Assembly: GCA_965603365.1 (NCBI GenBank)
Contig: CBFDCR010000014.1
Coordinates: 14,183 to 78,182 of the forward strand
Source: an uncultured bacterium
GTDB lineage: Bacteria > Acidobacteriota > Aminicenantia > UBA2199
DNA: 64,000 nucleotides
Reading direction: 5' to 3'
The translations under genes and the position numbers were made by a program. This document shows positions 14,101-60,600 of this stretch, piece by piece; the stretch's first letter is position 1; the number at the start of each line of letters is the position of its first letter. Below the pieces are notes generated by a model. That model saw nothing but the letters and a program-made list of their open reading frames with translations. It did no database searches and was not told the origin of the DNA.

Positions 14101-14231
14101 TAAGGCAAATCGACATCGGGCATCATATCCAATCCCAATTTGCCGAAGGAGATAAAGCCGAAGATCACGATTACCGCCACCACCATGCCTACCGTGACCC
14201 GTCTCTTTAGCGAAAATTCAACGATCTTCAT
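11133..14231 (-). CDS. RND efflux transporter permease (AcrB/HAE1-type)
   Basis: 1032 aa with 12-TM architecture and two large periplasmic loops. Typical N-terminus (FSLKRRVTVGMVVAVIVIFG). Co-oriented with the MFP and OMF genes. Confidence 0.9.
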   Translation of the reverse strand: MKIVEFSLKRRVTVGMVVAVIVIFGFISFGKLGLDMMPDVDLPYISVITAYSGVSSEDIEETLTRPLEQWISTVSNVKELKSISQEGISIIMVEFESGTNLDFAAQDVRDKIGVFEQFLPEGADQSLVVKFNFADMPIMMYGITGGKRDLKSLKDYIDNEVATRLERLEGVASAIVFTSEEAEILVNVDKGKLESRGISISQVEGAIQTSNINLPSGYLDERHKEYLIRTIGEFKKVGEIKEVVVGVGRRGEPIFLRDIADVKEASKEIRNLVRIEGTKGVGLVITKSSGANTVLVAREVKKALEMIRPTLDPDLNFTVAMDFSRIIEIMANKSANNILVGGILAMLLILLFLRNLRPTLAIGIAIPLSVVTTFIALYLADYTLNLVTLGGLALGVGMLVDNAVVVIENIFRHLEEGKSSTEAAMLGTSEVGTAIIASTLTTIAVFFPMMFAGGIAGDMSRGMALAVSFSLLSSLFVALTIIPMLAARLFKTKTDSNASRLRLGKDKFVKFRNLYEKYLQGALRRRKLVLLAVLVIFVVAIVLSAMMGTEFMPDVDRSMIFLKLSMPVGTNLEETNRIIKYMEEQALKDSNVISTMVSVGLSQENAQDSASGFNPGGSYEATLWSYLTTSSQRDISDKQIIEHWRQYFPDLQKGKVQFIDIASASMGSSISSPIEFSFFGRELDRLETIAEEVKEKISAIEGIRDVEITLEKRKPEIQLKIKKEEASKLGLTPYDISRQVQTFTIGTVVSRMMLEGEERNIRVRLMEKDRDTLEALKKLPLMTPTGAKVYLSQVVDFKESFGAVKIDRENQVRKVSVTANYVDRDLGSIVEEIMAKSKEITDNLPEGYFYEMGGQYKEMMESFTTMLFALLLAIVLVYAVMASQFESLKYPFIIMFTFPLAFIGTAILLAATGKNVSLPAIMGFIMLGGIVVNNGIVMVDYINQLIGRGKDKYEALVDGAVVRLRPILITALSTICGMLPMALSATEGSEMRSPMAIALIGGLFASTFLTLFIVPILYSYFSKIKIPKKANP

Positions 14232-45701: not shown

Positions 45702-46331
45702 TTAACGGTTACAATATTTATTTAATTCGGTTACCAGTTGGTGGACCGTAGTGGATGGATTGTCTTTTCCCGGATTCGGGGGATTGTAGCGGTTTAACAG
45801 CCTTTCGGCATTTTTTATTGCTTCTTTCTGCTTGTTTAACAATTCCCGGTACATGGATGGATGATTCTTTTTATAGGGATGGTTTAAAAGCTGAGAAAGT
45901 TTCTCTATATATTGTTGCCTGGACATGGCCGTCTGGTAATAATGAAAGTGCAGCAGGTACCACAACTCGAAGGCCTCGTTGGAGTATGCGACCTTAATGC
46001 CCTGCCTAACGGCAAATGTGATGGCTTCACTAAAATTCTCCAGGGTGAAACCATTGCGATCGAATACGCACCACACTTGATCGTAAACCTCCTCATTGAT
46101 TCGGGCCCTGTCTCTGATCGCCAATGCCTTTCTTACCAGATTCACGGTATTATCCCCGGCTCCGATGACCTTGACTGTTGCCGAACTCAGCCGAAAAGAG
46201 TTAAAATAATTCGGTTCCGTTTTTTGCCCCTCGCAAACGATCAGAAAACTCTTTGGCGGCCTGCCTCTAAGCCTCGATTTTCTCTTAAGCGATCTGTTTT
46301 TTTTCTTCCAGAATAGGTTATCCGTTCCCAT
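45702..46331 (-). CDS. RloB-family (Toprim-like) protein
   Basis: FLIVCEGQKTEPNYFNSF motif, 209 aa. TAATG overlap with the upstream ATPase gene. Confidence 0.85.
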   Translation of the reverse strand: MGTDNLFWKKKNRSLKRKSRLRGRPPKSFLIVCEGQKTEPNYFNSFRLSSATVKVIGAGDNTVNLVRKALAIRDRARINEEVYDQVWCVFDRNGFTLENFSEAITFAVRQGIKVAYSNEAFELWYLLHFHYYQTAMSRQQYIEKLSQLLNHPYKKNHPSMYRELLNKQKEAIKNAERLLNRYNPPNPGKDNPSTTVHQLVTELNKYCNR

Positions 46332-47584
46332 TAAACCTTATCATTATCAGTGCTGTCCTCAAACAGAGATTCAATATTACCGATAAACGGGATGGCTCCG
46401 TATTTTCCCATGATGTAATCTTTATTGAATGAGGCATCCTTGCGGACTTTGTATTCCTCCAGGGAGTAAAGTTCCGACGCCCCATATTCATCTTTCTGGA
46501 TAAACCAGATCTGGTCTCTCCTGAAAAATTGATTGGACAGGATGTTGGTATCATGGCTGACGAATATGAGCTGTGATTTGGGCCTCCAGGCGTTATCTTT
46601 TTTTGGTTTGTAATGATGAAACATCTCGATGAGTGCCCTCGTTAAAAGAGGATGAAATTTCGATGTGAGTTCGTCTATTACCAACACATCGTCATTTTTT
46701 AAAGCTTGATAAATGGGCTGTGAGAGTTCGAAAAGAGCCTGAGTCCCGGCCGATTCGTCTCTAAGAAGGTCGAACTTTTCCTCCGATAACGGGTTGTTAT
46801 GCTGATCGTATATTTGATGTATAACCCTATAACAGGATGACTGGTCATATACCCTGCCATCGTTTCGATCCTTCCAAATATCTTCCTTCTTGATGTTTTT
46901 TAATCCCATATCGGCAACCTTTAAAAGTTTTAGTACAAATTCCTTGAATTCATGATGCTCAAGTTCATAATCACACCAACAATCCGATTCAATATCAATA
47001 ACAATAACAAGATGATCGAACCATTCCAATATCTTTTTGGCGGTCTGACCATTAAATTGATCGACCACAGAAAGGAAAAGGGCGTTTGCCCTTGTCTTGC
47101 TTGCTAATCCTTTTCCTTCTTTAAAACCGGGACCTATCTTAATTTGATCTTTTTCTCTGGTAAAAAGGGTGGCCTCCCTGATGGTGGGAACATAATAGAG
47201 CCATTCATGGTAAACCCGTTCCCTGTCTACCTGGAATCCATATCTATAGCGTATCCCGTCAATTAAAAAAGTAACCTCAAAGGTCGAAGGCACGGTCTTT
47301 GTTTCAGTACTTAATCGAAATTCATCAACCTTTTTTATTTTGTTTGCAGAACTTTCCTTAGAAGAAGTTAATACAAGCTCCTTCATTAATTTAAGGGCTT
47401 TAACCAGGTTCGATTTTCCACTGGCATTGGCCCCATAAAGGGCAGCACTTTTTAGCAGTCTCAGCTTATCGTTCACCCGGATAGTGTTGGTATCACGATG
47501 CTCTCTGTCTGCTGAAGCCACCATGCTCAGGGTAACAATATCCTTGAAGGAGAGGAAATTTCCTACTTTAAATTCTATCAACAT
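46331..47584 (-). CDS. AAA_21/ABC-type ATPase (RloA / OLD-ATPase-like)
   Basis: MLIEFKVGNFLSFKD start, Walker A GANASGKSNL, and C-terminal LVIDELTSKFHP and QLIFVSHDT. The ATG at 47584 follows GAGAGG. AT-rich. Confidence 0.85.
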   Translation of the reverse strand: MLIEFKVGNFLSFKDIVTLSMVASADREHRDTNTIRVNDKLRLLKSAALYGANASGKSNLVKALKLMKELVLTSSKESSANKIKKVDEFRLSTETKTVPSTFEVTFLIDGIRYRYGFQVDRERVYHEWLYYVPTIREATLFTREKDQIKIGPGFKEGKGLASKTRANALFLSVVDQFNGQTAKKILEWFDHLVIVIDIESDCWCDYELEHHEFKEFVLKLLKVADMGLKNIKKEDIWKDRNDGRVYDQSSCYRVIHQIYDQHNNPLSEEKFDLLRDESAGTQALFELSQPIYQALKNDDVLVIDELTSKFHPLLTRALIEMFHHYKPKKDNAWRPKSQLIFVSHDTNILSNQFFRRDQIWFIQKDEYGASELYSLEEYKVRKDASFNKDYIMGKYGAIPFIGNIESLFEDSTDNDKV

Positions 47585-47717
47585 CTTTAGCCTCTCTTTG
47601 TTCTTATAATCTATTATCAAATTAAAGTCAAGTTTTTTGAGAAAATTCCTCAAAAAAGTGTCTTTTGCAACCAAATCCTGCTGGCGAATAGGGCAAAGGA
47701 GTGCGGTTTGTTCTCAT

Positions 47718-48557
47718 TTAAATCGGCATGGGGGGGTGATTTTCGGTATGGCGGTCGATTTTCAGGGAGGGGAGATCTATGGTGACATAGGTGAAATCTC
47801 GCAGTTGGCCCGGCTGGATGGAGAGGGTGTCGCCAATTTTGTTAAACCAACTGCCGGTCATCAGCGGCGACTCGTGGATGTGGCCGTGAAGCGACAGCAG
47901 GGGTTGATGGGTCTCCAGGAACCGATACACGGCTATAGAACCCACCTCCCGGCCGTCGGAGCAGCAATCCAGGCCCACAAAGGCGGGGGGCATGTGCATC
48001 ACATATATACTGCGCCGAAAATCCGTCGGTTTTACCAACTGCCCCAACTCATCCTGGAGTGTGGCTAAGGTCAGGGCATAACTGAACCAATCGTCGATAT
48101 AGGCCAGGCCGTCTTCCGTAGACAATACTCCACGGCCATGCTGCTGGGGAAAGATAAAATCCCGGGTATCCATGCGGCAGCGGTCCTTCAACTGGAAGGG
48201 ATAATCCGCCACCCAGTTCATGCCGATAAATTCGTATCCCCCAATTTCCACCCTCTTCTGGGCCAGGTCTTTAACAAAGGCGTATTTCCCGCAGGTCGCC
48301 TCGTACAACGAATCGAATATCCGCAAGTCGTCGTTGCCCAGGCAGCCCAGGTAATAAATTCCCGCACTCTCTAATTTCTTAAAATAGGGGCCCAGGTATT
48401 CGACGATAAACTGGCTCTGCTTTTTCAACGCGCCGCCAAAGGGCAGGGCATCGCCGCCGTTGATTACGATGTCGGCCGCCATCTCCCGGGCCAGTTCAAA
48501 AAGCCGCTCGTATTTCCACCAACTGCCGTGCAGATCAGTCACATAAATGATTGTCAT
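47718..48557 (-). CDS. calcineurin-like metallophosphoesterase
   Basis: YVTDLHG, GGDA, GNDD, HMPP and GHIHE metal-ligand motifs. 279 aa. Confidence 0.8.
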   Translation of the reverse strand: MTIIYVTDLHGSWWKYERLFELAREMAADIVINGGDALPFGGALKKQSQFIVEYLGPYFKKLESAGIYYLGCLGNDDLRIFDSLYEATCGKYAFVKDLAQKRVEIGGYEFIGMNWVADYPFQLKDRCRMDTRDFIFPQQHGRGVLSTEDGLAYIDDWFSYALTLATLQDELGQLVKPTDFRRSIYVMHMPPAFVGLDCCSDGREVGSIAVYRFLETHQPLLSLHGHIHESPLMTGSWFNKIGDTLSIQPGQLRDFTYVTIDLPSLKIDRHTENHPPMPI

Positions 48558-48688
48558 CGTCCCAAAAAGAGTACCATTCTACACCATCGTACTCCCCAAC
48601 ACAAGAGCAAAACCAACCAGAACGAAACCGGAGAAGCGGGAACAGATCCCGGAATGCTGGATTTGTGGAATTATTTTTCTACAACTTA

Positions 48689-48717
48689 TTGAAATATTAG
48701 AATATTTCCTCTAAAAT
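48689..48717 (+). promoter_or_regulatory. sigma70-type promoter of the three-gene operon, with a palindrome in the spacer
   Basis: TTGAAA (48689-48694), 17-nt spacer, TAAAAT (48712-48717). The spacer contains AAATATT-AG-AATATTT. Confidence 0.55.
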
Positions 48718-48784
48718 TAGACCTATGGAAAAAACGATCTTCCCGTCAGTTGTGCATAAAAATGGCTGGTAAATTAAAAGTAAA

Positions 48785-49342
48785 ATGAGGGTAAATAATT
48801 TTAAATCTCTTAAAGGGAACAAAGACCTTTTAAAGGCCAAAAAAGTGGGCATTTTAGCATCCAGGCACATTCTCCCCGGTCTTACCCAATTTGTGATGGA
48901 GTCTATGCAAAGGCTAGCCAGATTGGAAACCGTATTCATTGGCGGCTGGCATGCACCGATTGAAAAAGAGATTCATAAATTTTTGGTTAAGCGTCAAGTA
49001 TCACACATTCATGTTTGTGCCCAAACCGTTGATAAAACATACTGTGCTTTAAACCCAACTAAAACCCTGTTTATATCGCACTGCCATCCCGGTATTACCC
49101 GCATATCGAGGGAAAATGCTCTTAAAGGAAACAGTGTCTTATGTGAATTATCGGACGTTATGTTAATCCCCTGGTTAGATCCTTATGGCAAAACGCATAA
49201 AATTGTTCTTGACTTCTGTAACAGGATGCCGGTCTTTGTTTTTGATACAGAATTCAATTCTGGTCTAATTGAGGCAGGGGCCCTCTCTTATCATTGCAAC
49301 AAAGTAATATCTACTCTGGAGAACGATCATGCGAACAATTGA
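48785..49342 (+). CDS. DprA/Smf-like (SLOG superfamily) Rossmann protein
   Basis: 185 aa. VGILASR...TVFIGGWHAPIEKEIH...SRENALKGNSVLCELSDVMLIPW...GKT...PVFVFD follows the DprA Rossmann pattern without its flanking DNA-binding domains. 14-nt overlap with the next gene. Confidence 0.6.
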   Translation: MRVNNFKSLKGNKDLLKAKKVGILASRHILPGLTQFVMESMQRLARLETVFIGGWHAPIEKEIHKFLVKRQVSHIHVCAQTVDKTYCALNPTKTLFISHCHPGITRISRENALKGNSVLCELSDVMLIPWLDPYGKTHKIVLDFCNRMPVFVFDTEFNSGLIEAGALSYHCNKVISTLENDHANN

Positions 49343-52300
49343 AGAGATCATAAAAACTCAATCCCATCTGGTGGTGCGCCAGATTCGAGAGGCGACGAGC
49401 TGGACCGAATCCGAAGAGGATTTACGAATAGCAACAGAAAGAATACTGGGAGAATTCAAAAACCAGGCAAAATTACAAGATTTTAGAGGACATCACGAGG
49501 TTACGATTGGCAAGGGAAGAGCAGATTCTGTTTACAATTACGTGGTTATAGAATATAAAAAACCCAAACGGCTAAGTGAATCAAATACTGCCCCGGGAAA
49601 CCGGGAAGTTATCGAGCAGTTAAAGACACGCCTGTATGACCTGGAAAAAGAAGAGAGGAGAAAAATCACGAAATTATTCGGCATCGGTTTTGATGGCCAC
49701 TGGTTTATCTTTGTTCGGTTCCGAAATAACAGTTGGGAAATCAGCAATCCTCTTCCTGTCACCCCCCAGACTACAGAGAGATTCTTACGGGCATTGTTAT
49801 CGCTTGCCGCAACCGGTAAAGCATTTCAACCGGCCTATCTTTCCGGGGACTTTGGTGCCGATTCGCTGTTATCGGGGGAAGGTATAAAGACATTTTATAA
49901 AGCCATCACCAACTCCGAAAATCCCAAAGCACAGGTTCTTTTTGATGAGTGGAAAATTCTTTTCGGTGAAGTGGGGGGCTATGACGTAAAAGCCTTTGAG
50001 GAAAAAATACAGGTTCTGGCCGATTTCTATCATATCAAGGGGAAACCCGATCCTTCCGCACTCCTCTTCTCCGTACATACCTATTATGCCCTATTCATGA
50101 AGTTGCTGGCTGCCGAAATCATGAACTACTTTAATCCCATGTTCCCATCTATTCTCAGTCGTCTTCATCAGATTGCCACCGGAGAAAAGCTTTTGCGCGA
50201 ACTGCGAGAACTGGAAAAGGGTGGAATTTACCGACAGATGGGGATTACGAACTTCTTAGAGGGCGATATGTTTTTATGGTATCTGGAGGCCTGGGATACC
50301 AAAGATAAAAAAGGAGAAAAGATTGATCTGGAGCGAGTCATCCGTGACATGATCGGTAGATTGGATGAATATGACCCGGTAACCCTCTCTATCGAACCCG
50401 GCGAATCGAGAGACCTGCTTAAAGAACTGTACCAGAACCTCTTCCCCCAAAAAATACGGCACGATCTCGGCGAATATTATACTCCAGATTGGCTTGCCCA
50501 ATGGGTGATTGAAAAAGTCGGGATCAAAGGAAATCCGGATGAACGCATACTCGACCCGGCATGCGGCTCCGGCACATTCCTGGTGCTGGCGATTCAGAAG
50601 GTACGTGAATTTGCCGACGAAAAAATGATACCGGAAAAGGAGCTTTTAAAAAAGATTAATGAAAATGTGATCGGCTTTGACTTGAATCCTCTGGCAGTTA
50701 TCGCCGCCCGGCTCAATTATCTCATCGCCATCAGAGATTTAATTAAATACGGAAATCAGATCGAAATCCCCGTCTACCTGTGCGATTCGGTCATGACACC
50801 ATCCGAATATGGAGAACTTTTTACAAATAACAAAGGCGTTGCTGCCCCGGGCGGAAGACGAGGGGCAGTGAAGGAGCTTAAAACCAGCGCTGAAACCTTT
50901 TACATCCCTACAGAGATCGCTGCCTCCCGCGGACTGGTGGCCAGATATGCCGAAGAGTTGGAATACTGTGTACAGCATGAATTTAGTCCCGAAGAGTTCA
51001 TCCAGAGGCTAAAGGAAGAAGACCTGCCGGTTCTTCATGAAGATTTGCACAAAGATCTGTTCAATATGTTAACCAGTCTAAATAAACGGGACAAAAACGG
51101 TATCTGGGCGCGCATTATAAAGAATGCCTTTGCCCCCCTCTTCATCCAGCCGGTGGACTACGTGATCGGTAATCCACCATGGGTAAACTGGGAGAGCCTG
51201 CCGGGAGAGTACCGGCAGGACAGTAAAGAGTTATGGTTTAAATACAACCTGTTTCCCCACAAAGGCATGGATGCCATCCTGGGTAAAGGGAAGAAAGATA
51301 TTTCTATGATTATGACGTATGTTGCCATGGACAAATATTTGAAGGCTCACGGCCGTCTGGGATTCGTAATTACCCAATCGGTGTTTAAGACCTCCGGGGC
51401 TGGCCAGGGTTTTCGACGATTTCGGATCAATAACGAAATCCCCATCGCACCGGTGTACTGCGACGACATGGTAAAAATCAAACCCTTTGAAGCGGCCAAT
51501 CGCACCGCAGTCATCGTGCTGGAACGGGACAAAGAGTTAGAGTACCCGGTTCCCTACACGGTCTGGAAAAAGAAGGAGCGACAGAAAATAGACAGCCACA
51601 CCCCGCTATCGGCTGTGCTGGAGAGGACGCTGAGAGATCCATTTGTAGGAAAACCGGTGGATGGCAGGGACAAAACTTCCGCCTGGATAACAGGCAAAAC
51701 GAAGGCACTCGAGGCCGTAAACAAAGTACTCGGGAAATCCGCCTACAAAGCCCATGAAGGTGTAAATACCGGTGGTGCCAATGGAGTCTATTGGGTCGAA
51801 ATCCTGCAGGAGTTGGCGGAAGGCAAGGTACTGGTGCGAAACATCACCGAAGGGGCCAAACGAAAAGTCAGGCAGGCAGAAGCGGTGATTGAAAAGGATT
51901 TACTGTATCCCCTGGTGCGGGGGCGCGACGTCAGACGCTGGCAGGCCAAACCTTCGGCCCACATCATCATGGTACAGGACCCCCAAAAACGGCGGGGCAT
52001 CGACGAATCCATAATGAAACAAAAATACCCCCTCACTTATACTTATCTTAAACAATTTGAGAGAGTATTAAAGTCACGGGCAGCGTACAGGCGCTATTTC
52101 AAAGAGAGCGATCCGTTTTATTCAATGTTCGATGTGGGCAGCTATACATTGGCCCCCTGGAAAGTAAGCTGGCGATACATTGCCAGTGAATTCACCTGTA
52201 GTGTGATATCTGCCGATCAAGATTATAGCAACAATCTTATTATCCCGGATCACCGTTTAATTGTGGTCTCCTTTCAAACCCCAGAAGAAGCCCACTACCT

Positions 52301-52601
52301 ATGCGCAGTATTAAATTCAGCACCGTCACGCTATCTGGTCAATAGTTATGTGATAAGCACCCAAATATCTACCCATGTTCTCCATAATATCTATGTCCCC
52401 CGATTTGATCTATCTGTTCCCGGCCACCAGGAACTGGCAAGTCTCTCAAAACAGGCCCACCAGGTTGCGAAGACAGGAGATGGCACCCGCCTGAGAAAAG
52501 TGGAAGCGGAAATCGATAAGCTTACAGCCCCATTATGGAATCTCACCGCGAAAGAGTTACGAGACATCCAGGCATCGTTGAAAGCAATAGTGAGTCAGTA
52601 A
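49329..52601 (+). CDS. single-chain restriction-modification enzyme: PD-(D/E)xK nuclease + N6-adenine MTase + TaqI-like specificity domain (type IIG-like)
   Basis: HsdR-N/Mrr-like GRADSVYNYVVIEYKKP (49518-49562) and GFDGHWFIF. Motif I DPACGSGTFL (50553). Motif IV NPPW (51171-51182). C-terminal TRD-like ~350 aa. Confidence 0.8.
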   Translation: MRTIEEIIKTQSHLVVRQIREATSWTESEEDLRIATERILGEFKNQAKLQDFRGHHEVTIGKGRADSVYNYVVIEYKKPKRLSESNTAPGNREVIEQLKTRLYDLEKEERRKITKLFGIGFDGHWFIFVRFRNNSWEISNPLPVTPQTTERFLRALLSLAATGKAFQPAYLSGDFGADSLLSGEGIKTFYKAITNSENPKAQVLFDEWKILFGEVGGYDVKAFEEKIQVLADFYHIKGKPDPSALLFSVHTYYALFMKLLAAEIMNYFNPMFPSILSRLHQIATGEKLLRELRELEKGGIYRQMGITNFLEGDMFLWYLEAWDTKDKKGEKIDLERVIRDMIGRLDEYDPVTLSIEPGESRDLLKELYQNLFPQKIRHDLGEYYTPDWLAQWVIEKVGIKGNPDERILDPACGSGTFLVLAIQKVREFADEKMIPEKELLKKINENVIGFDLNPLAVIAARLNYLIAIRDLIKYGNQIEIPVYLCDSVMTPSEYGELFTNNKGVAAPGGRRGAVKELKTSAETFYIPTEIAASRGLVARYAEELEYCVQHEFSPEEFIQRLKEEDLPVLHEDLHKDLFNMLTSLNKRDKNGIWARIIKNAFAPLFIQPVDYVIGNPPWVNWESLPGEYRQDSKELWFKYNLFPHKGMDAILGKGKKDISMIMTYVAMDKYLKAHGRLGFVITQSVFKTSGAGQGFRRFRINNEIPIAPVYCDDMVKIKPFEAANRTAVIVLERDKELEYPVPYTVWKKKERQKIDSHTPLSAVLERTLRDPFVGKPVDGRDKTSAWITGKTKALEAVNKVLGKSAYKAHEGVNTGGANGVYWVEILQELAEGKVLVRNITEGAKRKVRQAEAVIEKDLLYPLVRGRDVRRWQAKPSAHIIMVQDPQKRRGIDESIMKQKYPLTYTYLKQFERVLKSRAAYRRYFKESDPFYSMFDVGSYTLAPWKVSWRYIASEFTCSVISADQDYSNNLIIPDHRLIVVSFQTPEEAHYLCAVLNSAPSRYLVNSYVISTQISTHVLHNIYVPRFDLSVPGHQELASLSKQAHQVAKTGDGTRLRKVEAEIDKLTAPLWNLTAKELRDIQASLKAIVSQ

Positions 52602-52602
52602 A

Positions 52603-55278
52603 ATGGATGAAACGGACTTTCGGGAATCGGATATCGTTGTTTCACAGGACGATCTGCTGCGGCCCTACGGCAAGGCGCGCCTCATTAAAATCAAAAGAGG
52701 GTTGGCCGAAGCAGAGTACGTACCCCATATTTTCAGCCGGCCGCCCTACTTTACCCATATCAAATTTCTCCGACTGGAAGAGACCGAGAAGTTCCTTTCA
52801 CCGGTTGACAGGTTACAAAATCGCCGATTCGAAGAAACCTGGAAATTTGACATGCGGCAAATGGCCGCCAGGTTTCTCACGGCCAACAAGGGCGGTCAGC
52901 TTTCCTGTATCCGCGCCGAATTGTTACCCCATCAAATCTTCACCGCCTATGAAGTCATCAAAAGTAAACGGCGCCGCTTTCTGCTGGCCCACGCAGGGAA
53001 AACGGGGAAAATCATAGAAGCGGGTCTGATCTGGGAGGCCCTTTTCCAGCGGAGAGTGGCAGACCGTACCCTGATCATTTGCCCCGCCGGATTAATGCTG
53101 CAGTGGCAGGAGGAGATAGAGGAAAAATTCGGTACCTTTTTCGAAATATTTAACCGCAACTTCCTTACCATCAATCCCCGCATGTGGGACTTAAAAACCA
53201 CCGTCATCGTCTCTATCGAAGGTTTGAAGCAGGCAGAGGCAAAACTGCTAAAAGATCGCCAGTGGGATTTAATTATAATCGACGAGGCCCACAAACTGAG
53301 TGCCGGAGAGCATAGATCCACATTGGCGGAGCAGCTAAAAGACCACACCGATGCCCTGATTTTACTTACCGCCACCCCTCATCAGGGAGAAGACAACCAC
53401 GCCCGTTTTATCAATTTGATGAAACTGCTGGATGAAGAGATCGACTTTAATCCCCTGTTCCATGGAGATCTCCCTCTTTTTAAAACGAAGACCGACCCGG
53501 GCAAGGTTCCCTTTTATCAGTATATCCTGGGTACCCCCAAAATGGCCGTGACCGACGCCTCGGGCCGCAAACTCCTCAAAGGGCGCAAAACCCATAATTA
53601 TACATTTGAGATGTTCCCTGACGAAAATGAGTTTTATAAGGCAGTAACAAATTATATTAAAAAAGGCTATTCCTGTCTCGAACGGCTCAGGGATAAACAG
53701 GATCGCCAGGCCCTCTGCCTTGTCCTCTCCCTATTCCAGAAAATCGCGGCCAGCAGCACCGCCGCCATCAAAAATTCACTCCGCAACCGCAAGCTGGCCC
53801 TGGAATACAAGAACGGTATCGTAAGAGAAAAAAGTAAATTTGAAGATGAACGGTTCAGCGGAGAATACGAAGAGTCTCAAGTTCCATTTGAATTCGAAAA
53901 ACAATTTATCAAAGACGAAGTCAAAGAGATCGATTCCCTCCTTGACATGGAAGTCCGGCAGGATACTAAATCCGTTGAACTTCTAAACCTCATCCACTCA
54001 ATATTTGACCCGATAGCAGATGAAAAAGAGGGCAAAATTGTCATTTTTACCGAATATCTCGCCACCCAGAAGCACCTGGTGGACATACTGGAACATGAAT
54101 ATGGCCAGGATTGTACAATTACCATAAACGGCAACCTGGATGTGGACCAGCGGCGTCTCAATCAAAGAGAATTTCGGGATAATCCCAGGATTCATTTTCT
54201 CGTATCTACCGAATCCGGGGGAGAAGGCGGTAACCTTCAGTGTTCCCACATCCTGTTTAACTACGACATGCCCTGGAATCCGAGGCGGATCGAGCAGCGG
54301 GTGAGAAGAGTCTACCGATATGGCCAGGCGCAGGTGGTACAAATCCACAATTTTCGAACAAAAGGGACAAGCGAAGATAAAATTTATGGGTATATAGAGG
54401 AAAAAATCGAGCGGGCAGCCAGCGCACTCACCAGGGTGACCGGTGAAGATGTGGAAGGGATCATGGCCGCCATGTACGACGAAATGGAAAATGAGATCGA
54501 TTACAATGAAATATACAAAAGGTCTCTGGTTGAAGGCGATATCGAAGAAGCAAAAGAGGAGATCGACCGGGGCGTTGCCCGGGCAAAGCGGGCGTATGAA
54601 TTAGCCGCAGAGAAATTGTTTAAGGATGTCTCCGCTTATTCACCCGATTATTATGAAAAATACGTGCAGTCAGACATAACATTACAGGATCTGGCAGTAT
54701 TCACCAGGAGATATCTGGAATCCAAACGAAAAAAGTCACAAAAAACAGACGGTATTTTTTCTTTTATCACTCCCGAAGAATTCTGTGATAGAGAAGTTAA
54801 AGACAGGTATGAAAATGTCACCTTCGACCGCAAAAAAGCCGGCGATCAGCCGGAATTAGAATTACTCGCCCTGGGTCATCCATTCATAGACAAAATGGTC
54901 AACTCATGCGGAACCGTCGATTTTGGTGGGTATGCAACCACTCGAATCATAAAAAATAAAAAATTTTCCGGCACAAAAGGAATTCAATTTAATTATGTTG
55001 TCTCTCATCGTATCGAACGAGGTGAAAAAGAAGAATATCTTTTTGATATGTATACCATTTTTATCGATGAATCTTACCAGATCAACGACGATATAGCCCA
55101 TATCTGCCGGAGATACTATTCGGAAAATGACCATCCAATTGTGGACAACGGAATCGATGTCGATATAAAAAAAGCCGAAAAAATTGCCGAGAATTATTTG
55201 CGTAAAAATATCGACATTATCCGGGGCTGGCAAGAGGATGTAGAATTATTGAATGCAGCCCTTGTCCAGGTACAATAA
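52603..55278 (+). CDS. SNF2-family (RapA/HepA-like) helicase/translocase
   Basis: LIIIDEAHKL, ILLTATPHQG, FLVSTESGGEGGNLQ and NYDMPWNPRRIEQRVRRVYRYGQ. Motif I is atypical (AHAGKTGKIIEAG). It starts 1 nt after the R-M gene stop. Confidence 0.85.
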   Translation: MDETDFRESDIVVSQDDLLRPYGKARLIKIKRGLAEAEYVPHIFSRPPYFTHIKFLRLEETEKFLSPVDRLQNRRFEETWKFDMRQMAARFLTANKGGQLSCIRAELLPHQIFTAYEVIKSKRRRFLLAHAGKTGKIIEAGLIWEALFQRRVADRTLIICPAGLMLQWQEEIEEKFGTFFEIFNRNFLTINPRMWDLKTTVIVSIEGLKQAEAKLLKDRQWDLIIIDEAHKLSAGEHRSTLAEQLKDHTDALILLTATPHQGEDNHARFINLMKLLDEEIDFNPLFHGDLPLFKTKTDPGKVPFYQYILGTPKMAVTDASGRKLLKGRKTHNYTFEMFPDENEFYKAVTNYIKKGYSCLERLRDKQDRQALCLVLSLFQKIAASSTAAIKNSLRNRKLALEYKNGIVREKSKFEDERFSGEYEESQVPFEFEKQFIKDEVKEIDSLLDMEVRQDTKSVELLNLIHSIFDPIADEKEGKIVIFTEYLATQKHLVDILEHEYGQDCTITINGNLDVDQRRLNQREFRDNPRIHFLVSTESGGEGGNLQCSHILFNYDMPWNPRRIEQRVRRVYRYGQAQVVQIHNFRTKGTSEDKIYGYIEEKIERAASALTRVTGEDVEGIMAAMYDEMENEIDYNEIYKRSLVEGDIEEAKEEIDRGVARAKRAYELAAEKLFKDVSAYSPDYYEKYVQSDITLQDLAVFTRRYLESKRKKSQKTDGIFSFITPEEFCDREVKDRYENVTFDRKKAGDQPELELLALGHPFIDKMVNSCGTVDFGGYATTRIIKNKKFSGTKGIQFNYVVSHRIERGEKEEYLFDMYTIFIDESYQINDDIAHICRRYYSENDHPIVDNGIDVDIKKAEKIAENYLRKNIDIIRGWQEDVELLNAALVQVQ

Positions 55279-55289
55279 GTTTCAAAGTC

Positions 55290-55562
55290 GGTCAAATCGG
55301 GTCTAGTGGCGGGCCAGTTGGATGGCTTTGTCGAGGAATTCGTCGCGGCCCTCTTTCACCCCTTTGATGGTTCTGTTGAGGGGGATGTGGGGGATGATGC
55401 CCACGCCGTGAGGTGAGGCTCCAGGGGTTCTAACTTCCAGGAGCGGTTGGCGTATGTGACCTGTTCATAATCGGGATAGGCGATTTTCCACCAACTGCCG
55501 TGCAGATCAGTCACATAAATGATTGTCATCATGCCAAAAAAAACACCATTCTACACTATCTA
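55290..55562 (-). repeat. chimeric duplicate: S41-peptidase 3' fragment fused to the metallophosphoesterase 5' fragment plus its upstream DNA
   Basis: 55290-55410 matches 58304-58425 with about 3 differences. 55411-55488 matches 58634-58707 with about 3 differences; the intervening ~208 nt are missing. 55487-55562 matches 48512-48590, with the first 46 nt identical. Confidence 0.9.
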
Positions 55563-55576
55563 AGATGATCTAAGGA

Positions 55577-55951
55577 TTATCTCTTTTCAGTATACTTAAC
55601 CCCTTCAATGCCTTCAAAATCAGCATCTTGTGTCCACAGGACGGCACCGAGGAGCAAAGAGGTTGCCAATATTATACTATCTGCCATGGGCAATTGATGA
55701 TCCACCGAGATTCGGGCCGCATGAATAGAAATTTCGGTATCAAGATCTATGACCTTGCCCTGCCGCATCAATGCTACCGCTTCAAGGGCTTGATTCTCGT
55801 CTCTCTGCTGAAGTACTCTCTTGAAAACTTCATATAAAGTAATGGAAGGGACCAATAACTCGGCAACATTTTCAATAGCAGGGATGAAGAATTCACAATT
55901 TGGACCATCGGAAAAATATTCCAGCCAACCACAAGAATCAACAATATTCAT
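55577..55951 (-). CDS. PIN-domain VapC toxin
   Basis: MNIVDSCGWLEYF..., ADSIILATS and WTQDADF motifs. ATGA overlap with the antitoxin gene. Confidence 0.85.
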   Translation of the reverse strand: MNIVDSCGWLEYFSDGPNCEFFIPAIENVAELLVPSITLYEVFKRVLQQRDENQALEAVALMRQGKVIDLDTEISIHAARISVDHQLPMADSIILATSLLLGAVLWTQDADFEGIEGVKYTEKR

Positions 55952-56154
55952 ATTCGATCTTTCTCCCGGGTTACGGTGGTATCAATTCCCTTCAAGAATC
56001 CCCTCGCTTCCTTGATGGGTTTGACCGGGATCATTTCGATCCGATTCCCATATAAGAAAACCTGTACCTTTTGGCCGGGGAGAATACCTAAAGATTTCCG
56101 AATTGATCGGGGGATAACCACCTGAAATTTTGGCGATACTGTAATAGTCTCCAT
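55948..56154 (-). CDS. AbrB/MazE/SpoVT-family antitoxin
   Basis: TVSPKFQVVIPRSIRKSLGILPGQKV swapped-hairpin motif. 68 aa. Confidence 0.85.
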   Translation of the reverse strand: METITVSPKFQVVIPRSIRKSLGILPGQKVQVFLYGNRIEMIPVKPIKEARGFLKGIDTTVTREKDRI

Positions 56155-56295
56155 ACGTTCTCCTTATCGATCAAGCTTTCGTATTACAAATAAATATATT
56201 ATCACATAATTCCCCCCATTTCAAACACAATTCCTGCCCGCCGACTTCCTATCCTTCCTACTTTCTTGTTGACAGGGAAATTACTTTTATTTATA

Positions 56296-56556
56296 ATGAA
56301 TTTGATGGCAATACAAATTCACCCCCATGCTCTGGATCGAATGAAAGAACGCGGCACCAATGCAGAAGAGATAAAAAAAACCATTGAATTTGGAGAAAGT
56401 TTCCCGGCAAAATTCGGCAGAACCGGCTTTAGACGCAATTTCCCATTTAACAGCTATTGGAATCAAAAGAAATACAACACCAAACAGGTTGAAGTTATTG
56501 CCATCCGGGAAGACAATAATTGGATCGCAGTAACGGTATTAGTGAAATACTTTTAG
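56296..56556 (+). CDS. DUF4258-family protein (putative toxin)
   Basis: IHPHALDRMKERGTNAEEIKKTIEFGE...VEVIAIREDNNWIAVTVL pattern. The ATG at 56296 is preferred; the track start at 56266 is TTG. Confidence 0.65.
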   Translation: MNLMAIQIHPHALDRMKERGTNAEEIKKTIEFGESFPAKFGRTGFRRNFPFNSYWNQKKYNTKQVEVIAIREDNNWIAVTVLVKYF

Positions 56557-56566
56557 GAGAAAAAAA

Positions 56567-56800
56567 ATGAAAATAAGTTACGATCCCAAATACAACATTG
56601 CTTATATCAAAGTGAGAGATAAAGCCGCTGACGTCGAAACCCTTCGAATCAGCGATGAAATCAACATTGATCTTACACCTGATGGGAGGGTTTACGGCAT
56701 TGAATTGATGAATGCCAACGAACAACTGGATTTTGAGAAAACCAGGGAATTGATATTCATCAATGAATCCACCGGCCAAAAAGCAGAGCTGAGGATATAA
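56567..56800 (+). CDS. DUF2283-family protein (putative antitoxin)
   Basis: MKISYDPKYNIAYIKV...IDLTPDGRVYGIELMNANE pattern. Confidence 0.75.
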   Translation: MKISYDPKYNIAYIKVRDKAADVETLRISDEINIDLTPDGRVYGIELMNANEQLDFEKTRELIFINESTGQKAELRI

Positions 56801-57071
56801 TTTGACGAGTACTTAATCTTTGCCTGTCACCTATCTCCTACCTACTAATAGCTAAAACAAAGACAGCCAGATTTCCCCTTGTATGGGACGCAGTTCTGCG
56901 TTCCCCACAACAACCTTTCAGAGGAAAACAAGGGGGACGAAAAAAATGAAAAATTGTCAAAAGGAAAAAAGAATTTGCGCTTCTGAAATTCAAATTTGTT
57001 TGCTCCAGACTGGAAAAGACTGGATATTATTGAATTGTTAAATGTTCGCCTTCATGCACCTTAAGGCAATT

Positions 57072-58136
57072 CTACTTTTTATCTTTGCCTGTATCACTAT
57101 ATAATTTTCGGATATCTCCATATTCTAAAATATAATCATAAATATAATAACCTCCAACTTTTGAATTAAAATAATGCCCGGGACTCCTACCTGGCCATCT
57201 CCCAATAAAAGCGAACTTCTCGATTTTCTCGGGCCAGAGAAAACTATTATAACTTCCGATATATTTGTCATCAATATAAAACTTAACGAAATCATAATTT
57301 TTTGACCACATTACTGTAAATAAATGCCAGCCTATATCGATCTTTTTATCAGTTGAAATTGCATCCCTTCTTATCCCATCACTACTACCAAACCTCCAAT
57401 AGATTTTGCCAGTTTCTTTGTTATAGAATTTGCCTATATGACAGGCATTGATATATATTTTTTGAAATTGCGGATGACCATCTTCATCCTCATATTCAAT
57501 TTTTTTCATCCGCCCCTTATTCCCAGAGTGACTTAAAATGTATTGATTATCTCTATTCTTAGTGTTATAGTGGTCATCGTTAATATAAGCCCAAATAGAA
57601 AATGTTCCCTCATTTCGCCCTAAAAAATCACACGGTATCCGCAATTCATTTCCTTTATATGCAGTTATATCATGCGTCTCTTCATCGCTAATAAAAGGCT
57701 TTTTAAAATCATCCAAAAATTTTCGTAAATAATTCTCAAAATTCAAAATCCCATCAGAATTAGAAAACTCGTATTTATAATATCTATGTGCTTTCAAATC
57801 TGTGGGTACATCATCACCATTTTGAGTAATTAACAGAACCTTCTTATTTAAAGCATGAGCTAATCCTAATTCATAGAATACATTAGGATTTCGATTAGTC
57901 AAATCTGCAACGATAATCCCGGCCTGTTTAATTAGATTTGCAACACCTTGCATTATTGTTGTAGAAAACATATCATCCGCTTTTAGAATTTCATATCCAT
58001 ACTCTTCAAATATTGGTTTTAAAACTTTTTCAAAAATCAATATGTTTTTAAAAGGTAGAATAACAAAGGCCAATTTAGGCTTCACTGTTATTTCTTCATA
58101 TTCGAGCATGAAAAATTGAGTTTCTTGATAGTCCAT
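57072..58136 (-). CDS. NDT/TIR-like Rossmann domain fused to a LamG (ConA-like lectin) domain
   Basis: N-terminus: AFVILPF...ILKADDMF...IKQAGIIVADLTNRNPNVFYELGLAHALNKKVLLI. C-terminus: GTFSIWAYIN...WHLFTVMWSKNYDFVKFYIDDKYIGS...VGGYYIYDYILEYGDIRKLY. Markedly AT-rich. GGAGG before the ATG. Confidence 0.65.
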   Translation of the reverse strand: MDYQETQFFMLEYEEITVKPKLAFVILPFKNILIFEKVLKPIFEEYGYEILKADDMFSTTIMQGVANLIKQAGIIVADLTNRNPNVFYELGLAHALNKKVLLITQNGDDVPTDLKAHRYYKYEFSNSDGILNFENYLRKFLDDFKKPFISDEETHDITAYKGNELRIPCDFLGRNEGTFSIWAYINDDHYNTKNRDNQYILSHSGNKGRMKKIEYEDEDGHPQFQKIYINACHIGKFYNKETGKIYWRFGSSDGIRRDAISTDKKIDIGWHLFTVMWSKNYDFVKFYIDDKYIGSYNSFLWPEKIEKFAFIGRWPGRSPGHYFNSKVGGYYIYDYILEYGDIRKLYSDTGKDKK

Positions 58137-58305
58137 TTTATGCCTCCATCAACGTATATTCTTTCCGAAATCATATTATATCAAAGTCTTTCACTTTCTT
58201 CTACTTGAAGAACCATGACTTCAGAAATAAACCTTAAATCAATTCTTTTTTTTCATCCTTCTGGCAATTTTTTTGTCCCTCTTTGGGTATGAAAATGTCA
58301 CATGG

Positions 58306-60600
58306 TCAAATTTGGGTCTGGTGGCGGGCCAGTTGGATGGCTTTGTCGAGGAATTCGTCGCGGCCCTCTTTCACCCCTTTGATGGTTCTGTTGAGGGGGA
58401 TGTGGGGGATGATGCCCACGCCGTGGTGCTGAGAGCCGTCGTGTTTGACCACCCGCATACCGGTAAAGGTGACGCGGTAGCCGCCGGGCAGGCGGATGGC
58501 ATTCACATTGCCGTTGGTACCGGCAGTGGGCTGGCCGATGATGGTGGCCAGTTTGTAGTGTTCGATAAAGCCCATGAAGGATTCGGCATAACTGATGGCC
58601 CGGCCATCCACGATAAAAATCACTTTTGCCGTCAGGTGAGGCTCCAGGGGTGCTAACTTCCAGGAGCGGTTGGTGTATGTGACCTGTTCATAATCGGGAT
58701 AGACGATCTGGGGAATCCGCATCCAGGAGGTGGAGGTGTCCTTCTCCTTGAGCAAATGGCAGATCAAACGGTGATTGCCCATGGGGTAGCCCCTTAAATC
58801 GCAGATGATGCTTTTGGCCTTCTCCAGTTGGGGCATCAGTTTTTCGATCTCCGGCCAGGTGATTTGCCCCAGGTTCAGGTACAGGATGCCTTCCCCTATT
58901 TTTTTATACCTGTCCTCCCGAAAACTGATCTGCCGTTGATACTTCCTGCTGCAAACGATCTCCCGCAGAAGGATTTGATCTCCCCTGAGGATCTTCAAAC
59001 TCTTTTTGGAATTTTCTGTCCCCATCAGCAAATTGCCCAGTGTCCGGTACTGCTTCCAGCCGGGGGTGGCGGCGGAGATGTATTGGCCCTCGTTGGCCAG
59101 CGCATCGCCGGCTTTTAGGCCATCGATTTCCAGGATGATATCACCGGGCCTGATGTCAAGTTTCTGATCCAGCACCCGGGTCACCACCAGTTGCTCTTCC
59201 AGCCACTCCCAGTCGAGGGGCGCATAAAAAAGGCGGGGCGCGCCCTGTAGAGAGACCCGGACATGGCCGTCTTTCAAGGCGGCGGTGAATTTTTGCAGGG
59301 TTTTAAGGAAATCAAATTGATCCTTATCCCGGTAGGCCCATTCAAGGGCCCTGGTTAACTGGGCCGGCCAGTCGGCCTGGACTGCGTCGAAATAGGGAAA
59401 GAAGTGCTGAAAGATATTCCAGCTTATGACAATATCGGCCAGCCGGGTATACAGATCATCACCGGAAAACTCTTTTGAGACTTCCTGCTCAACCGCGGCA
59501 CGCAGCCGGGCCAACGCCTCTCCAGGAGAGGGCGGATAGGTATGCTCCCGGCTGCCGTAGAGGGCCAGGGGCACGATGCACGATAGGCCGCCGCCCAGTT
59601 CCTTGCTCACCGTCTCCCCCACCCGGGGAACCTGTTCAAAAATGGGGTCCCGGTACACCAGGGTTTTGTGTTCGATCAACAGACTCTTATTTCCCTTGGC
59701 CGCCGTCTGGTCTGTGACCTGAAAAGAGTAGACGGCATCGGCAAACATCCACTCCTTGGGCGACCCGCCGGGGCCAGCGACTTCAAAATCGGCATTCGGT
59801 ATTTCCACCGGCTGCCAGGCATCGGCCTCCTTGAGGTAAATTTGAAAATCATCGGCCCAGACCTTGCCCAAACCGACCAGGAAGCAGCCAAAGAAAATAT
59901 CTTCGGCATCATCGGCCACCGTACCGATAATTTCATAGTATTGCCAATCGGATGATCGAATGGGGCGGTCATCCATGTTGTCAAAAAATCCCAACTGTCG
60001 CCCGGGGCGGTCCACCCGCAGCCACAACTGGCTCTGGCCGGCCTTTTTTTGTACCTCCGCTTTGACGGCGGCACGCAATTTGATCTCCTTTCCCCGAAAG
60101 GGGGCGGAGTCAACTTTGCTGCTGATAGCCCCAAAATCATTGGCGGGAACGATCACGTTTTCCCGGTTAACCCGGATACTCTTGTAGATACTCCGGGGCC
60201 TTCCCAGGGCCACGCCCAGGTGCTGCCAGGCCACCTCTTTCATACCTTCCATCTCCGGCGGGGTGATGCTGGCTTTAGAAAACGCCACCGACTCTTCGGA
60301 ATCGTGGATCACCAGCGCAGGGGCAATGGGCATGAACAACCCCTGCAATGCCTGTTTAAGTTCGGCTCTATTTCGGGCCGACTCGACCGTTTTGATCCCG
60401 TAGACGGCAAACTTCTGCCAATCCATCCGGGCCGCCTCATCAGTGGGATGAAAGAAGCGCACATAGCCGTACAACCGGGCAAAGGTTTCGATGTTGGCCG
60501 CCGCCTCTTCATGGGAAGTTTGCCCCGGTAAATAACCGGCGGTACAAATCCCCATCAGAACCAGGATGAATAATACTACTCCGCTAACATTTCGCCTCAT
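58306..60600 (-). CDS. S41-family (tail-specific/tricorn-core-like) peptidase
   Basis: 764 aa. Signal peptide, PDZ-like segment (IRPGDIILEIDGLKAGDA), and S41 core (ICDLRGYPMGN...FIVDGRAISYAESF). Confidence 0.8.
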   Translation of the reverse strand: MRRNVSGVVLFILVLMGICTAGYLPGQTSHEEAAANIETFARLYGYVRFFHPTDEAARMDWQKFAVYGIKTVESARNRAELKQALQGLFMPIAPALVIHDSEESVAFSKASITPPEMEGMKEVAWQHLGVALGRPRSIYKSIRVNRENVIVPANDFGAISSKVDSAPFRGKEIKLRAAVKAEVQKKAGQSQLWLRVDRPGRQLGFFDNMDDRPIRSSDWQYYEIIGTVADDAEDIFFGCFLVGLGKVWADDFQIYLKEADAWQPVEIPNADFEVAGPGGSPKEWMFADAVYSFQVTDQTAAKGNKSLLIEHKTLVYRDPIFEQVPRVGETVSKELGGGLSCIVPLALYGSREHTYPPSPGEALARLRAAVEQEVSKEFSGDDLYTRLADIVISWNIFQHFFPYFDAVQADWPAQLTRALEWAYRDKDQFDFLKTLQKFTAALKDGHVRVSLQGAPRLFYAPLDWEWLEEQLVVTRVLDQKLDIRPGDIILEIDGLKAGDALANEGQYISAATPGWKQYRTLGNLLMGTENSKKSLKILRGDQILLREIVCSRKYQRQISFREDRYKKIGEGILYLNLGQITWPEIEKLMPQLEKAKSIICDLRGYPMGNHRLICHLLKEKDTSTSWMRIPQIVYPDYEQVTYTNRSWKLAPLEPHLTAKVIFIVDGRAISYAESFMGFIEHYKLATIIGQPTAGTNGNVNAIRLPGGYRVTFTGMRVVKHDGSQHHGVGIIPHIPLNRTIKGVKEGRDEFLDKAIQLARHQTQI

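Follow-up and report, generated by a model that had tools for sequence, protein, structure and literature searches.

This analysis concerns a 64,000-nucleotide stretch of DNA from an uncultured bacterium of the Aminicenantia (lineage UBA2199; contig CBFDCR010000014.1, forward strand, positions 14,183 to 78,182), hereafter the window, and within it a single gene for a 354-residue fusion protein that we regard as a candidate abortive-infection protein. The protein is referred to as NDT-LamG, after an N-terminal domain related to nucleoside 2-deoxyribosyltransferase (NDT) and a C-terminal domain of the LamG type. Coordinates for all features are collected in Table 1.

The open reading frame (ORF) translates exactly to the peptide strings quoted in an earlier, sequence-only reading of the same DNA. 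Among 5.8 billion proteins searched for homologues, the identical sequence was present together with 16 full-length homologues of 38-44% identity (E-values, E, of 1e-91 to 4e-65), and the alignment contains 36 invariant columns distributed across both halves. These full-length homologues and invariant columns mark the ORF as a real gene rather than a chance reading frame. Its G+C content (GC) is 31.5%, and 26.5% at third codon positions (GC3). The corresponding values are 55.6% and 69.0% for the adjoining S41 peptidase gene and 54.2% and 69.3% for the metallophosphoesterase gene, and the core genes beside the NDT-LamG gene have about 55% GC. Upstream of the gene there is a TATAAT hexamer (58180-58175) and a GGAGG Shine-Dalgarno sequence (58147-58143), the latter 6 nt before the ATG. 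A consensus promoter scan upstream of the gene called no full -35/-10 pair, and promoter and terminator counts for the region are at chance level; we infer a promoter from the TATAAT hexamer. The N-terminus of the protein is acidic, and the maximum Kyte-Doolittle value over a 19-residue window is 1.42, coinciding with the first β-strand. Nowhere does its hydrophobicity reach the level of a signal peptide or membrane helix. The protein is taken to be cytoplasmic because it has no hydrophobic N-terminus.

The N-terminal domain was characterized by structure prediction and by profile comparison. A Foldseek search with the full-length AlphaFold2 (AF2) model gave matches to the C-terminal domain only, and the N-terminal domain was therefore modelled separately from 85 sequences (pLDDT 88.8, pTM 0.83, β-α-β order). 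The model has a three-layer α/β flavodoxin-like or Rossmann-like fold, with five β-strands alternating with helices and a final long helix (residues 127-145) that connects to the C-terminal domain. Its best Foldseek matches are to NDT (2e-6) and DNPH1 (2e-5, TM-score up to 0.65). Next come TIR domains: the SPARTA TIR-APAZ protein (1.3e-4, with the top TM-score of 0.66), the SfSTING/Cap12 TIR (2.2e-4) and TIR-1. In Pfam, the domain matches Nuc_deoxyrib_tr (PF05014) with E 4.6e-5, scoring 24.0 bits in the whole protein and 26.4 bits as an isolated domain, while a scan of the 354-residue protein against the Pfam TIR families gave nothing at E <= 0.1. At the same cut-off there is a single PADLOC match, to the CBASS 'Effector/TIR' model PDLC00733 (E 2.5e-10). 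When the 43 members of the N-domain clade were scanned individually, 40 matched PF05014 at E <= 0.01 (best 8e-9), and 7 matched the CAP12/Pycsar TIR family PF10137 weakly (best 7e-4). For the profile search of the PDB, an untrimmed family alignment (A2) was swamped by coiled-coil matches from the helical C-termini of other carriers and was trimmed to give alignment A3 (43 sequences). The A3 profile matched DNPH1/Rcl at 9.7e-6 to 3e-4, T. brucei NDT at 0.041 and, weakly, the TIR domain of Cap12/SfSTING at 0.049. Because both profile and fold evidence place NDT and DNPH1 nearest and TIR next, the domain appears to lie within the NDT ('DrHyd') branch of the TIR-DrHyd-SLOG class, near the TIR border.

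A signature motif surrounds the predicted catalytic glutamate of this domain. It has the form N83-x-N85-V-F-Y-E89-L-G-x-A-H94-A and shows little or no variation across 85 proteins that carry unrelated partner domains, with N83, N85, V86, Y88, E89 and H94 identical throughout. The YELG of NDT-LamG aligns on the YELG of DNPH1/Rcl that carries the catalytic nucleophile (E104 in human DNPH1, E98 in L. leichmannii NDT), and the wider context of the conserved Glu (NVFYELG) is that of NDT/DNPH1. Cleavage of an N-glycosidic bond is plausibly the chemistry of the domain, as predicted from the motif; the substrate is not readable from sequence. DNPH1 Asp80 corresponds to Val65 in NDT-LamG, the column next to residue 65 is variable (D/G/V/K/N), and DNPH1 Ser98 corresponds to Asn83. 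In the numbering of the human sequence, Asp80 of DNPH1 (Asp72 in NDT) is the second catalytic acid and Ser98 a phosphate-binding residue.

It is distinctly unlikely that the NDT-like domain lacks catalytic activity and serves instead in nucleotide binding or oligomerisation, within a protein that has another conflict or regulatory role, such as the exclusion of plasmids or mobile elements or a joint function with the neighbouring toxin-antitoxin (TA) genes. The TIR-DrHyd-SLOG class does include inactive nucleotide sensors, one catalytic residue of DNPH1 is not conserved here, and two TA pairs accompany the NDT-LamG gene in its module. Set against this, a glutamate and surrounding motif that stay invariant whatever the partner domain are what is expected of an active site, and neither of these TA pairs is adjacent to the homologues in the eight contexts considered below.

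The C-terminal domain forms a jelly-roll β-sandwich of about 13 strands in the full-length AF2 model, which has an overall pLDDT of 84 and values of 87-95 in this domain. Foldseek matches to the full model include CBM40, a sialic-acid-binding domain (1e-8), NTNHA (1.6e-8), C-reactive protein (1.7e-7) and collagen IX NC4 (6.8e-7), as well as BoNT Hc-N lectin-like domains and pentraxins; all are ConA-like β-sandwiches. The domain matches Pfam Laminin_G_3 (PF13385) with E 2.3e-5 and 25.0 bits. Several full-length homologues are already annotated with PF13385, for which relatives of the domain reach 26-30 bits. A search of the PDB with the sequence profile of the domain found nothing significant, the best match being a GH16 laminarinase at E 0.31. 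A GH16-type catalytic role was considered and ruled out, as the family lacks any invariant acidic residue in this domain. The C-terminal domain diverges faster than the N-terminal domain in all 105 pairs compared within the fusion family (41% versus 60% identity). The sequence-only reading had described an NDT/TIR-like Rossmann domain with a conserved Glu in YELG, followed by a LamG/ConA-like domain, and each of these assignments agrees with the profiles, alignments and models given above.

Both domains also occur apart from one another, joined to many other partners. The NDT-like module is present at no fewer than 586 loci in one-genome-per-species collections of Bacteria and Archaea. It lies at either end of the protein and beside at least 35 distinct unrelated partner regions, which include AbiJ_NTD5 (8 loci), canonical TIR_2, FGE-sulfatase and DUF1883, and in metagenomic proteins it is joined to Hsp70, receiver (REC) domains, β-propellers and pentapeptide repeats. 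All sampled carriers match the same PADLOC CBASS 'TIR' effector model at 1e-9 to 1e-12. The module thus distributed looks, from these fusions, like an immune effector. In plasmid and phage collections only relatives of the N-terminal domain were found, annotated as hypothetical proteins.

Two further observations concern this module. Its commonest architecture among 80 loci fetched is a protein of about 280 residues (L024 9578-10414 and 23 other loci, for example L039, L053, L066 and L086, mostly in Proteobacteria) with an uncharacterised N-terminal domain of about 146 residues and a C-terminal NDT-like module; the N-terminal domain has no Pfam match in the single representative scanned (L024). 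Separately, proteins distantly related to the NDT-like domain (26-38% identity) and annotated as hypothetical are encoded in 47 phage records, most of them for phages of Streptococcus and Staphylococcus. Examples (H16-H30) include Streptococcus phage SM1 gp11, Enterococcus phage phiEf11 and Staphylococcus phage SAP-26. Nucleotide metabolism, superinfection exclusion and counter-defence are candidate roles for these phage proteins.

The LamG-type domain was surveyed with an exhaustive phmmer search over 1.84 billion cluster representatives. A word-indexed search with the C-domain profile returned almost only the fusion family, and phmmer was needed to find the other architectures. The domain occurs in 113 cluster representatives and is C-terminal in every one. 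The modules that precede it are the NDT-like domain (about 11 representatives), one to four predicted transmembrane (TM) helices (at least 25), TIR_2 (P0134, P0145, P0155 and P0163), DUF4062 (P0125, E 2.3e-28), Guanylate_cyc (P0132 and P0168), a KAP NTPase (two proteins; PADLOC PifA, 4e-49) and a YobI NTPase (PADLOC Tmn, 8e-16). Two of the TIR-LamG fusions match PADLOC SpbK at 5e-17 and 2e-22. The LamG-type domain may therefore be read as a shared sensor, because a constant C-terminal module behind interchangeable immune outputs is the arrangement that such a role would predict. The faster divergence of the C-terminal domain noted above points the same way. Together with the multi-partner fusions of the NDT-like module, this constancy lends comparative support to the sensor-plus-effector interpretation offered in the sequence-only reading.

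Among the membrane-anchored architectures is a family of about 290-350 residues with two N-terminal TM helices and a LamG-type domain (P0121, P0126, P0136, P0139, P0142, P0148 and P0150). P0121 (L087 2572-3501) is found on 32 contigs and adjoins putAbiC, a Vsr-like/DUF559 endonuclease and an MmeI-type restriction-modification (RM) enzyme. A strongly basic stretch past its second helix places the LamG domain in the cytoplasm. P0121 and P0126, the two members scanned, match no PADLOC model. These 2TM-LamG proteins are candidate membrane-effector versions of the same predicted sensor.

The fusion gene itself is rare and sporadic. A clear full-length relative is present in only 1 of 185,579 species-representative genomes, a Paludibacteraceae metagenome-assembled genome, and in every host examined (34% to 59% GC) the gene lies 6-17 GC points below its flanks. 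The gene was found in eight different neighbourhoods, some of which contain cas1/cas2, AAA_14 and Fic, or else HNH, PIF1 or IS110. These eight neighbourhoods share no gene, so that the fusion gene is a single-gene unit without a conserved partner; it is also AT-skewed and horizontally acquired. Conservation in core-genome contexts, which the sequence-only reading had named as an observation that would count against its sensor-plus-effector proposal, was not found, since the gene is sporadic and of foreign composition in all eight contexts.

These data bear on whether NDT-LamG could be a metabolic enzyme, namely an NDT or a DNPH1-like deoxynucleoside monophosphate hydrolase for nucleoside salvage or detoxification, with a carbohydrate-binding accessory domain. 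NDT and DNPH1 are indeed its closest relatives both among solved structures and in Pfam, and domains of the LamG/CBM40 type commonly bind sugars. We nevertheless consider a metabolic role very unlikely, given the extreme sporadicity of the gene, its foreign composition in every host, its location in a defence hotspot (below), the absence of an equivalent of DNPH1 Asp80, and the fact that TIR, AbiJ, PifA, Tmn and 2TM immune architectures share one or other of its domains. Assignment of the N-terminal domain to an unrelated housekeeping family, a second outcome named in the sequence-only reading, was likewise not obtained: its nearest families, NDT and DNPH1, are housekeeping enzymes, yet the clade is separate from them and promiscuously fused.

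In the window, the NDT-LamG gene lies in a compact cargo module, termed module B, between an intact S41 peptidase gene on its right and a 267-bp chimeric junction on its left (Table 1). The module also contains two TA pairs identified with Pfam, as the sequence-only reading had noted, and the AT-richness to which that reading drew attention is evident in the difference in GC from the S41 peptidase gene. To the left of the junction is a second cargo module, which borders on an intact metallophosphoesterase gene and contains three genes. These encode a 185-residue DprA/PsyrA-like protein (Pfam 8e-5, PADLOC PsyrA 4e-5), a 1090-residue type IIG restriction-methyltransferase (PADLOC E = 0) and an 891-residue SNF2 helicase that is BrxHI/DrmD-like (3e-89), and may constitute an RM-plus-helicase defence system of their own. 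The AbiLi/AbiLii pair, whose GC is low (0.39-0.44), directly adjoins the left side of the metallophosphoesterase gene. The junction is composed of copies of both flanking core genes. Because of this repeat structure, we interpret the locus as two alternative cargo modules of one metallophosphoesterase-S41 hotspot that were joined in tandem by recombination. So interpreted, the hotspot clearly illustrates how recombination can stack two defence cargo modules between one pair of core genes.

Table 1. Features of the NDT-LamG gene, its protein domains and the surrounding hotspot (positions in the window; strand. where none is assigned)
Feature	Position	Strand	Basis and details
NDT-like/LamG fusion coding sequence, complete, 354 residues	57072..58136	-	ATG at 58136; TAG stop 57072-57074
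Predicted NDT-like (DrHyd/TIR-related) Rossmann-like domain, residues ~19-145	57702..58082	-	AF2 model, Foldseek, profiles
Signature motif NPNVFYELGLAHA, residues 83-95	57852..57890	-	Translation; predicted catalytic Glu89 codon 57870-57872
ConA-like / LamG-type β-sandwich, residues ~155-345, proposed sensor	57102..57674	-	AF2, Foldseek, Pfam
Own signals of the NDT-LamG gene, span	58143..58180	-	Read directly from the sequence
Cargo module B (~3 kb), carrying the NDT-LamG gene	55561..58305	.	Pfam; GC 0.31-0.43; bounded by duplicated fragments
VapC(PIN)/MazE-AbrB pair	55577-56154	-	Pfam
DUF4258/DUF2283 pair	56266-56800	+	Pfam
Chimeric junction scar, 267 bp, left edge of module B	55294..55560	.	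Repeat families D1-D3
Scar piece: copy of S41 peptidase 3' end	55294-55410	.	97% identical to 58309-58425
Scar piece: internal S41 copy	55405-55484	.	95% identical to 58628-58707
Scar piece: copy of metallophosphoesterase 5' end	55485-55560	.	92% identical to 48513-48588
Pseudo-ORF across the scar	55356..55532	-	Reads MTIIYVTDLHG... fused to ...YPDYEQVTYANRSWKLEPLEPHLTA
Second cargo module	48589-55293	.	Bounded by the intact metallophosphoesterase gene and the scar
Three-gene module, overlapping or abutting frames	48785-55278	+	Pfam, PADLOC
AbiL-type pair, complete	45702-47674	-	AbiLi (AAA_21 ATPase) PADLOC 2e-98; AbiLii (RloB) 3e-31

The surroundings of the gene were also searched for the partners of known signalling and retron systems. 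Among the ORFs scanned with PADLOC and Pfam (about 32-63 kb of the window) there is no cyclase, CD-NTase or ThsB-like gene. No reverse transcriptase was detected by Pfam or PADLOC among the ORFs scanned at 49.3-60.6 kb, where non-coding RNA was not searched for, and a tRNA scan of the window was negative. Assignment of NDT-LamG as a CBASS or Pycsar effector was rejected, no cyclase having been found among these scanned ORFs. More generally, NDT-LamG might supply the effector to a signalling system of several genes that follows the logic of CBASS, Pycsar or Thoeris, with its LamG-type domain binding a small-molecule second messenger made by a separate enzyme instead of sensing the phage directly. 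The best defence-database match of the protein is to the CBASS 'Effector/TIR' model, and the partners of the LamG-type domain, TIR or TM modules, mirror the effector sets of Pycsar and CBASS. We think this unlikely, because the scanned ORFs contain no such enzyme and the eight homologue contexts have no common neighbour. The LamG-type domain is, moreover, itself fused to cyclases and PifA-like NTPases, which fits an upstream infection sensor better than a receiver of second messengers.

Several other ORFs in the window were recorded. A weak S_4TM match in ORF 42668-43141 (E 0.005) had no PADLOC support and was set aside. In a 161-residue ORF (43406-43891, + strand), a start that resembles the HicA toxin (residues 3-28) is combined with a HicB/UPF0150-like segment and an HTH_3 domain; it may represent a HicAB module that has fused or decayed. 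A Toprim-domain ORF is located at 41969-42526. Further left, a 489-residue ORF (34965-36434, - strand) matches Endotoxin_N, the delta-endotoxin N-terminal pore-forming domain, at E 1.8e-31; a Cry-like toxin domain is unexpected there. On the right, the first ~80 residues of a 100-residue ORF (60776-61078, + strand) resemble a class I aminoacyl-tRNA synthetase N-terminus (tRNA-synt_1 positions 1-48, E 2.8e-4, sub-threshold). This ORF lies upstream of the lspA-lgt-rluD genes, running into lspA (61062-61550); a truncated remnant of ileS or a frameshift might account for it.

Taking the gene, its domains and their relatives together, we judge it probable that NDT-LamG is a single-gene abortive-infection protein in which a putative LamG sensor activates a predicted N-glycosidase. 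The C-terminal β-sandwich would bind an infection-specific molecule of a phage or other mobile element, most plausibly a phage protein. In the NDT enzyme class, active sites form between subunits. Ligand binding to NDT-LamG could accordingly be imagined to release or assemble the N-terminal domains, so that the invariant Glu89 would cleave the N-glycosidic bond of an essential nucleotide, with NAD+ or purine (deoxy)nucleosides and nucleotides as candidate substrates. Depletion of that nucleotide would stop growth of the infected cell and block phage replication. We infer the sensing role of the LamG-type domain, the trigger, activation by oligomerisation, the substrate and the phenotype; the two folds, the conserved motif, the modularity, the lack of secretion signals and of a conserved partner, and the genomic setting are themselves results of the analysis.

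Several points weigh against this proposal. The Pfam scores of both domains are below the gathering thresholds (28.8 bits for PF05014 and 27.6 bits for Laminin_G_3), and it is profile, family-wide and fold evidence that supports the domain calls. The active site is not a copy of that of DNPH1, and catalytic competence is not certain because the equivalent of DNPH1 Asp80 is Val65 and the neighbouring column is variable. The usual ligands of LamG and ConA-like domains are carbohydrates outside the cell. Finally, several fusion homologues stand alone between housekeeping genes, and the link to defence islands outside the window is moderate. Co-occurrence with defence islands, which the sequence-only reading had proposed as a check, thus holds for the hotspot in the window, with its type IIG RM enzyme, SNF2 helicase and AbiL pair, and holds only in part elsewhere, where some neighbourhoods contain housekeeping genes only.

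A broader combination of claims is offered tentatively, and we regard it as possible rather than probable. The LamG-type domain would be a new cytoplasmic infection sensor with at least seven outputs (NDT-like, TIR, DUF4062, 2TM, nucleotide cyclase, PifA-like KAP NTPase and Tmn-like NTPase) and, by analogy, would be to bacteria what the ConA-fold SPRY sensors of TRIM proteins are to animals. The NDT-LamG family would, at the same time, use NDT/DNPH1-type chemistry on deoxynucleotides or purine nucleosides instead of TIR-type hydrolysis of NAD+. If true, the LamG-type β-sandwich would add to the catalogue of phage-detection domains a sensor module that is re-used with many effectors, and NDT-LamG would provide a stand-alone NDT-type effector beyond retrons and distinct from canonical TIR. 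NDT-type effectors have been predicted since 2013, and in the literature covered their experimental study is confined to retrons. Identifying one ligand of the LamG-type domain would then account for the triggers of the many uncharacterised proteins that share it, and the 354-residue single-gene format of NDT-LamG makes such work practical.

We compared NDT-LamG with described systems. The sequence-only reading had not recognised the architecture as a known system, and this assessment stands: PADLOC 2.0 (2023), NCBIfam 20.0 (June 2026) and Pfam hold no model for it, with a non-significant GapS1 match in NCBIfam only. A full-text literature search, with most subscription journals outside its coverage, found no paper on a LamG-TIR anti-phage protein or a ConA-like abortive-infection sensor. 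Among enzymes, NDT-LamG shares with DNPH1/Rcl and NDT (PF05014) the fold and the (F/Y)-E-L-G nucleophile motif. It differs from DNPH1/Rcl in that Ser/Gly of the phosphate loop are replaced by N83/N85 and Asp80 by Val65, and from both enzymes in being sub-threshold for PF05014, fused, sporadic and located in a defence island. Judged by these differences, it is not orthologous to the metabolic enzymes.

CBASS and Pycsar effectors differ from NDT-LamG, which has no SAVED, STING or cyclic nucleotide-binding domain; its LamG-type β-sandwich is the sole non-catalytic domain. No CD-NTase or pyrimidine cyclase operon was seen in the ORFs scanned or in the eight homologue contexts. In animals, SPRY/B30.2 sensors such as TRIM5α use a ConA-like β-sandwich as an intracellular sensor of pathogen proteins that is coupled to an effector. 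The resemblance is one of analogy only, as the C-terminal domain has no sequence match or specific fold match to SPRY.

Another of the closest known systems is the effector of retron Ec86 (Retron-Eco1). It is an abortive-infection effector of the NDT superfamily, its glutamate E106 is required for defence, and it forms a dimer or filament. Unlike NDT-LamG, whose partner is the LamG domain, it has a different C-lobe and is restrained by reverse transcriptase and multicopy single-stranded DNA. Its substrate has been given as adenine nucleosides in a preprint and, according to PMC13276650, as NAD+ by Carabias et al. 2024. Fusions of AbiJ-NTD to NDT were already interpreted as Abi toxins by Anantharaman et al. 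2013 (PMC3710099), and later work counts the NDT ('DrHyd') superfamily among immune effectors that target NAD+. The predictions by the Aravind group concern, in the passages that treat them (PMC3710099, PMC9503650), the same effector superfamily in a single-protein sensor-plus-toxin format. In our own loci, the N-domain clade of NDT-LamG is likewise found fused to AbiJ_NTD5. The AbiJ fusions differ in that their predicted sensor is N-terminal and helical, and the passages concerned (PMC3710099, PMC9503650) do not mention a LamG partner.

Also among the closest systems is Swarozyc, a single-gene DUF4062 TIR-like NADase whose auxiliary domain senses the phage portal (bioRxiv 10.64898/2026.05.01.722283). 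As is predicted for NDT-LamG, it is one polypeptide with an N-terminal N-glycosidase of the TIR/NDT superfamily, a catalytic Glu and a C-terminal auxiliary domain; this domain is needed for defence, and Swarozyc is found in defence islands (bioRxiv 10.64898/2026.05.01.722283). A relative of the LamG-type domain (P0125) even carries DUF4062 where NDT-LamG has its NDT-like module. The two differ in that the N-terminal domain of NDT-LamG does not match DUF4062 (PF13271) at E <= 0.1 and belongs to a separate NDT-like clade. The auxiliary domains may also differ: the text on Swarozyc mentions helical stalks and describes no lectin or β-sandwich auxiliary domain. The SpbK, ThsB-type TIR, PifA and Tmn models of PADLOC match the N-terminal parts of proteins that share the LamG-type C-terminal domain; these matches concern relatives of the C-terminal domain and not the NDT-LamG gene. 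Overall, comparison and analogy suggest that NDT-LamG would operate like Swarozyc, the SpbK-type TIR proteins and the AbiJ-type fusions while belonging to none of them, and what is more novel is the putative use of the LamG-type domain as a shared sensor.

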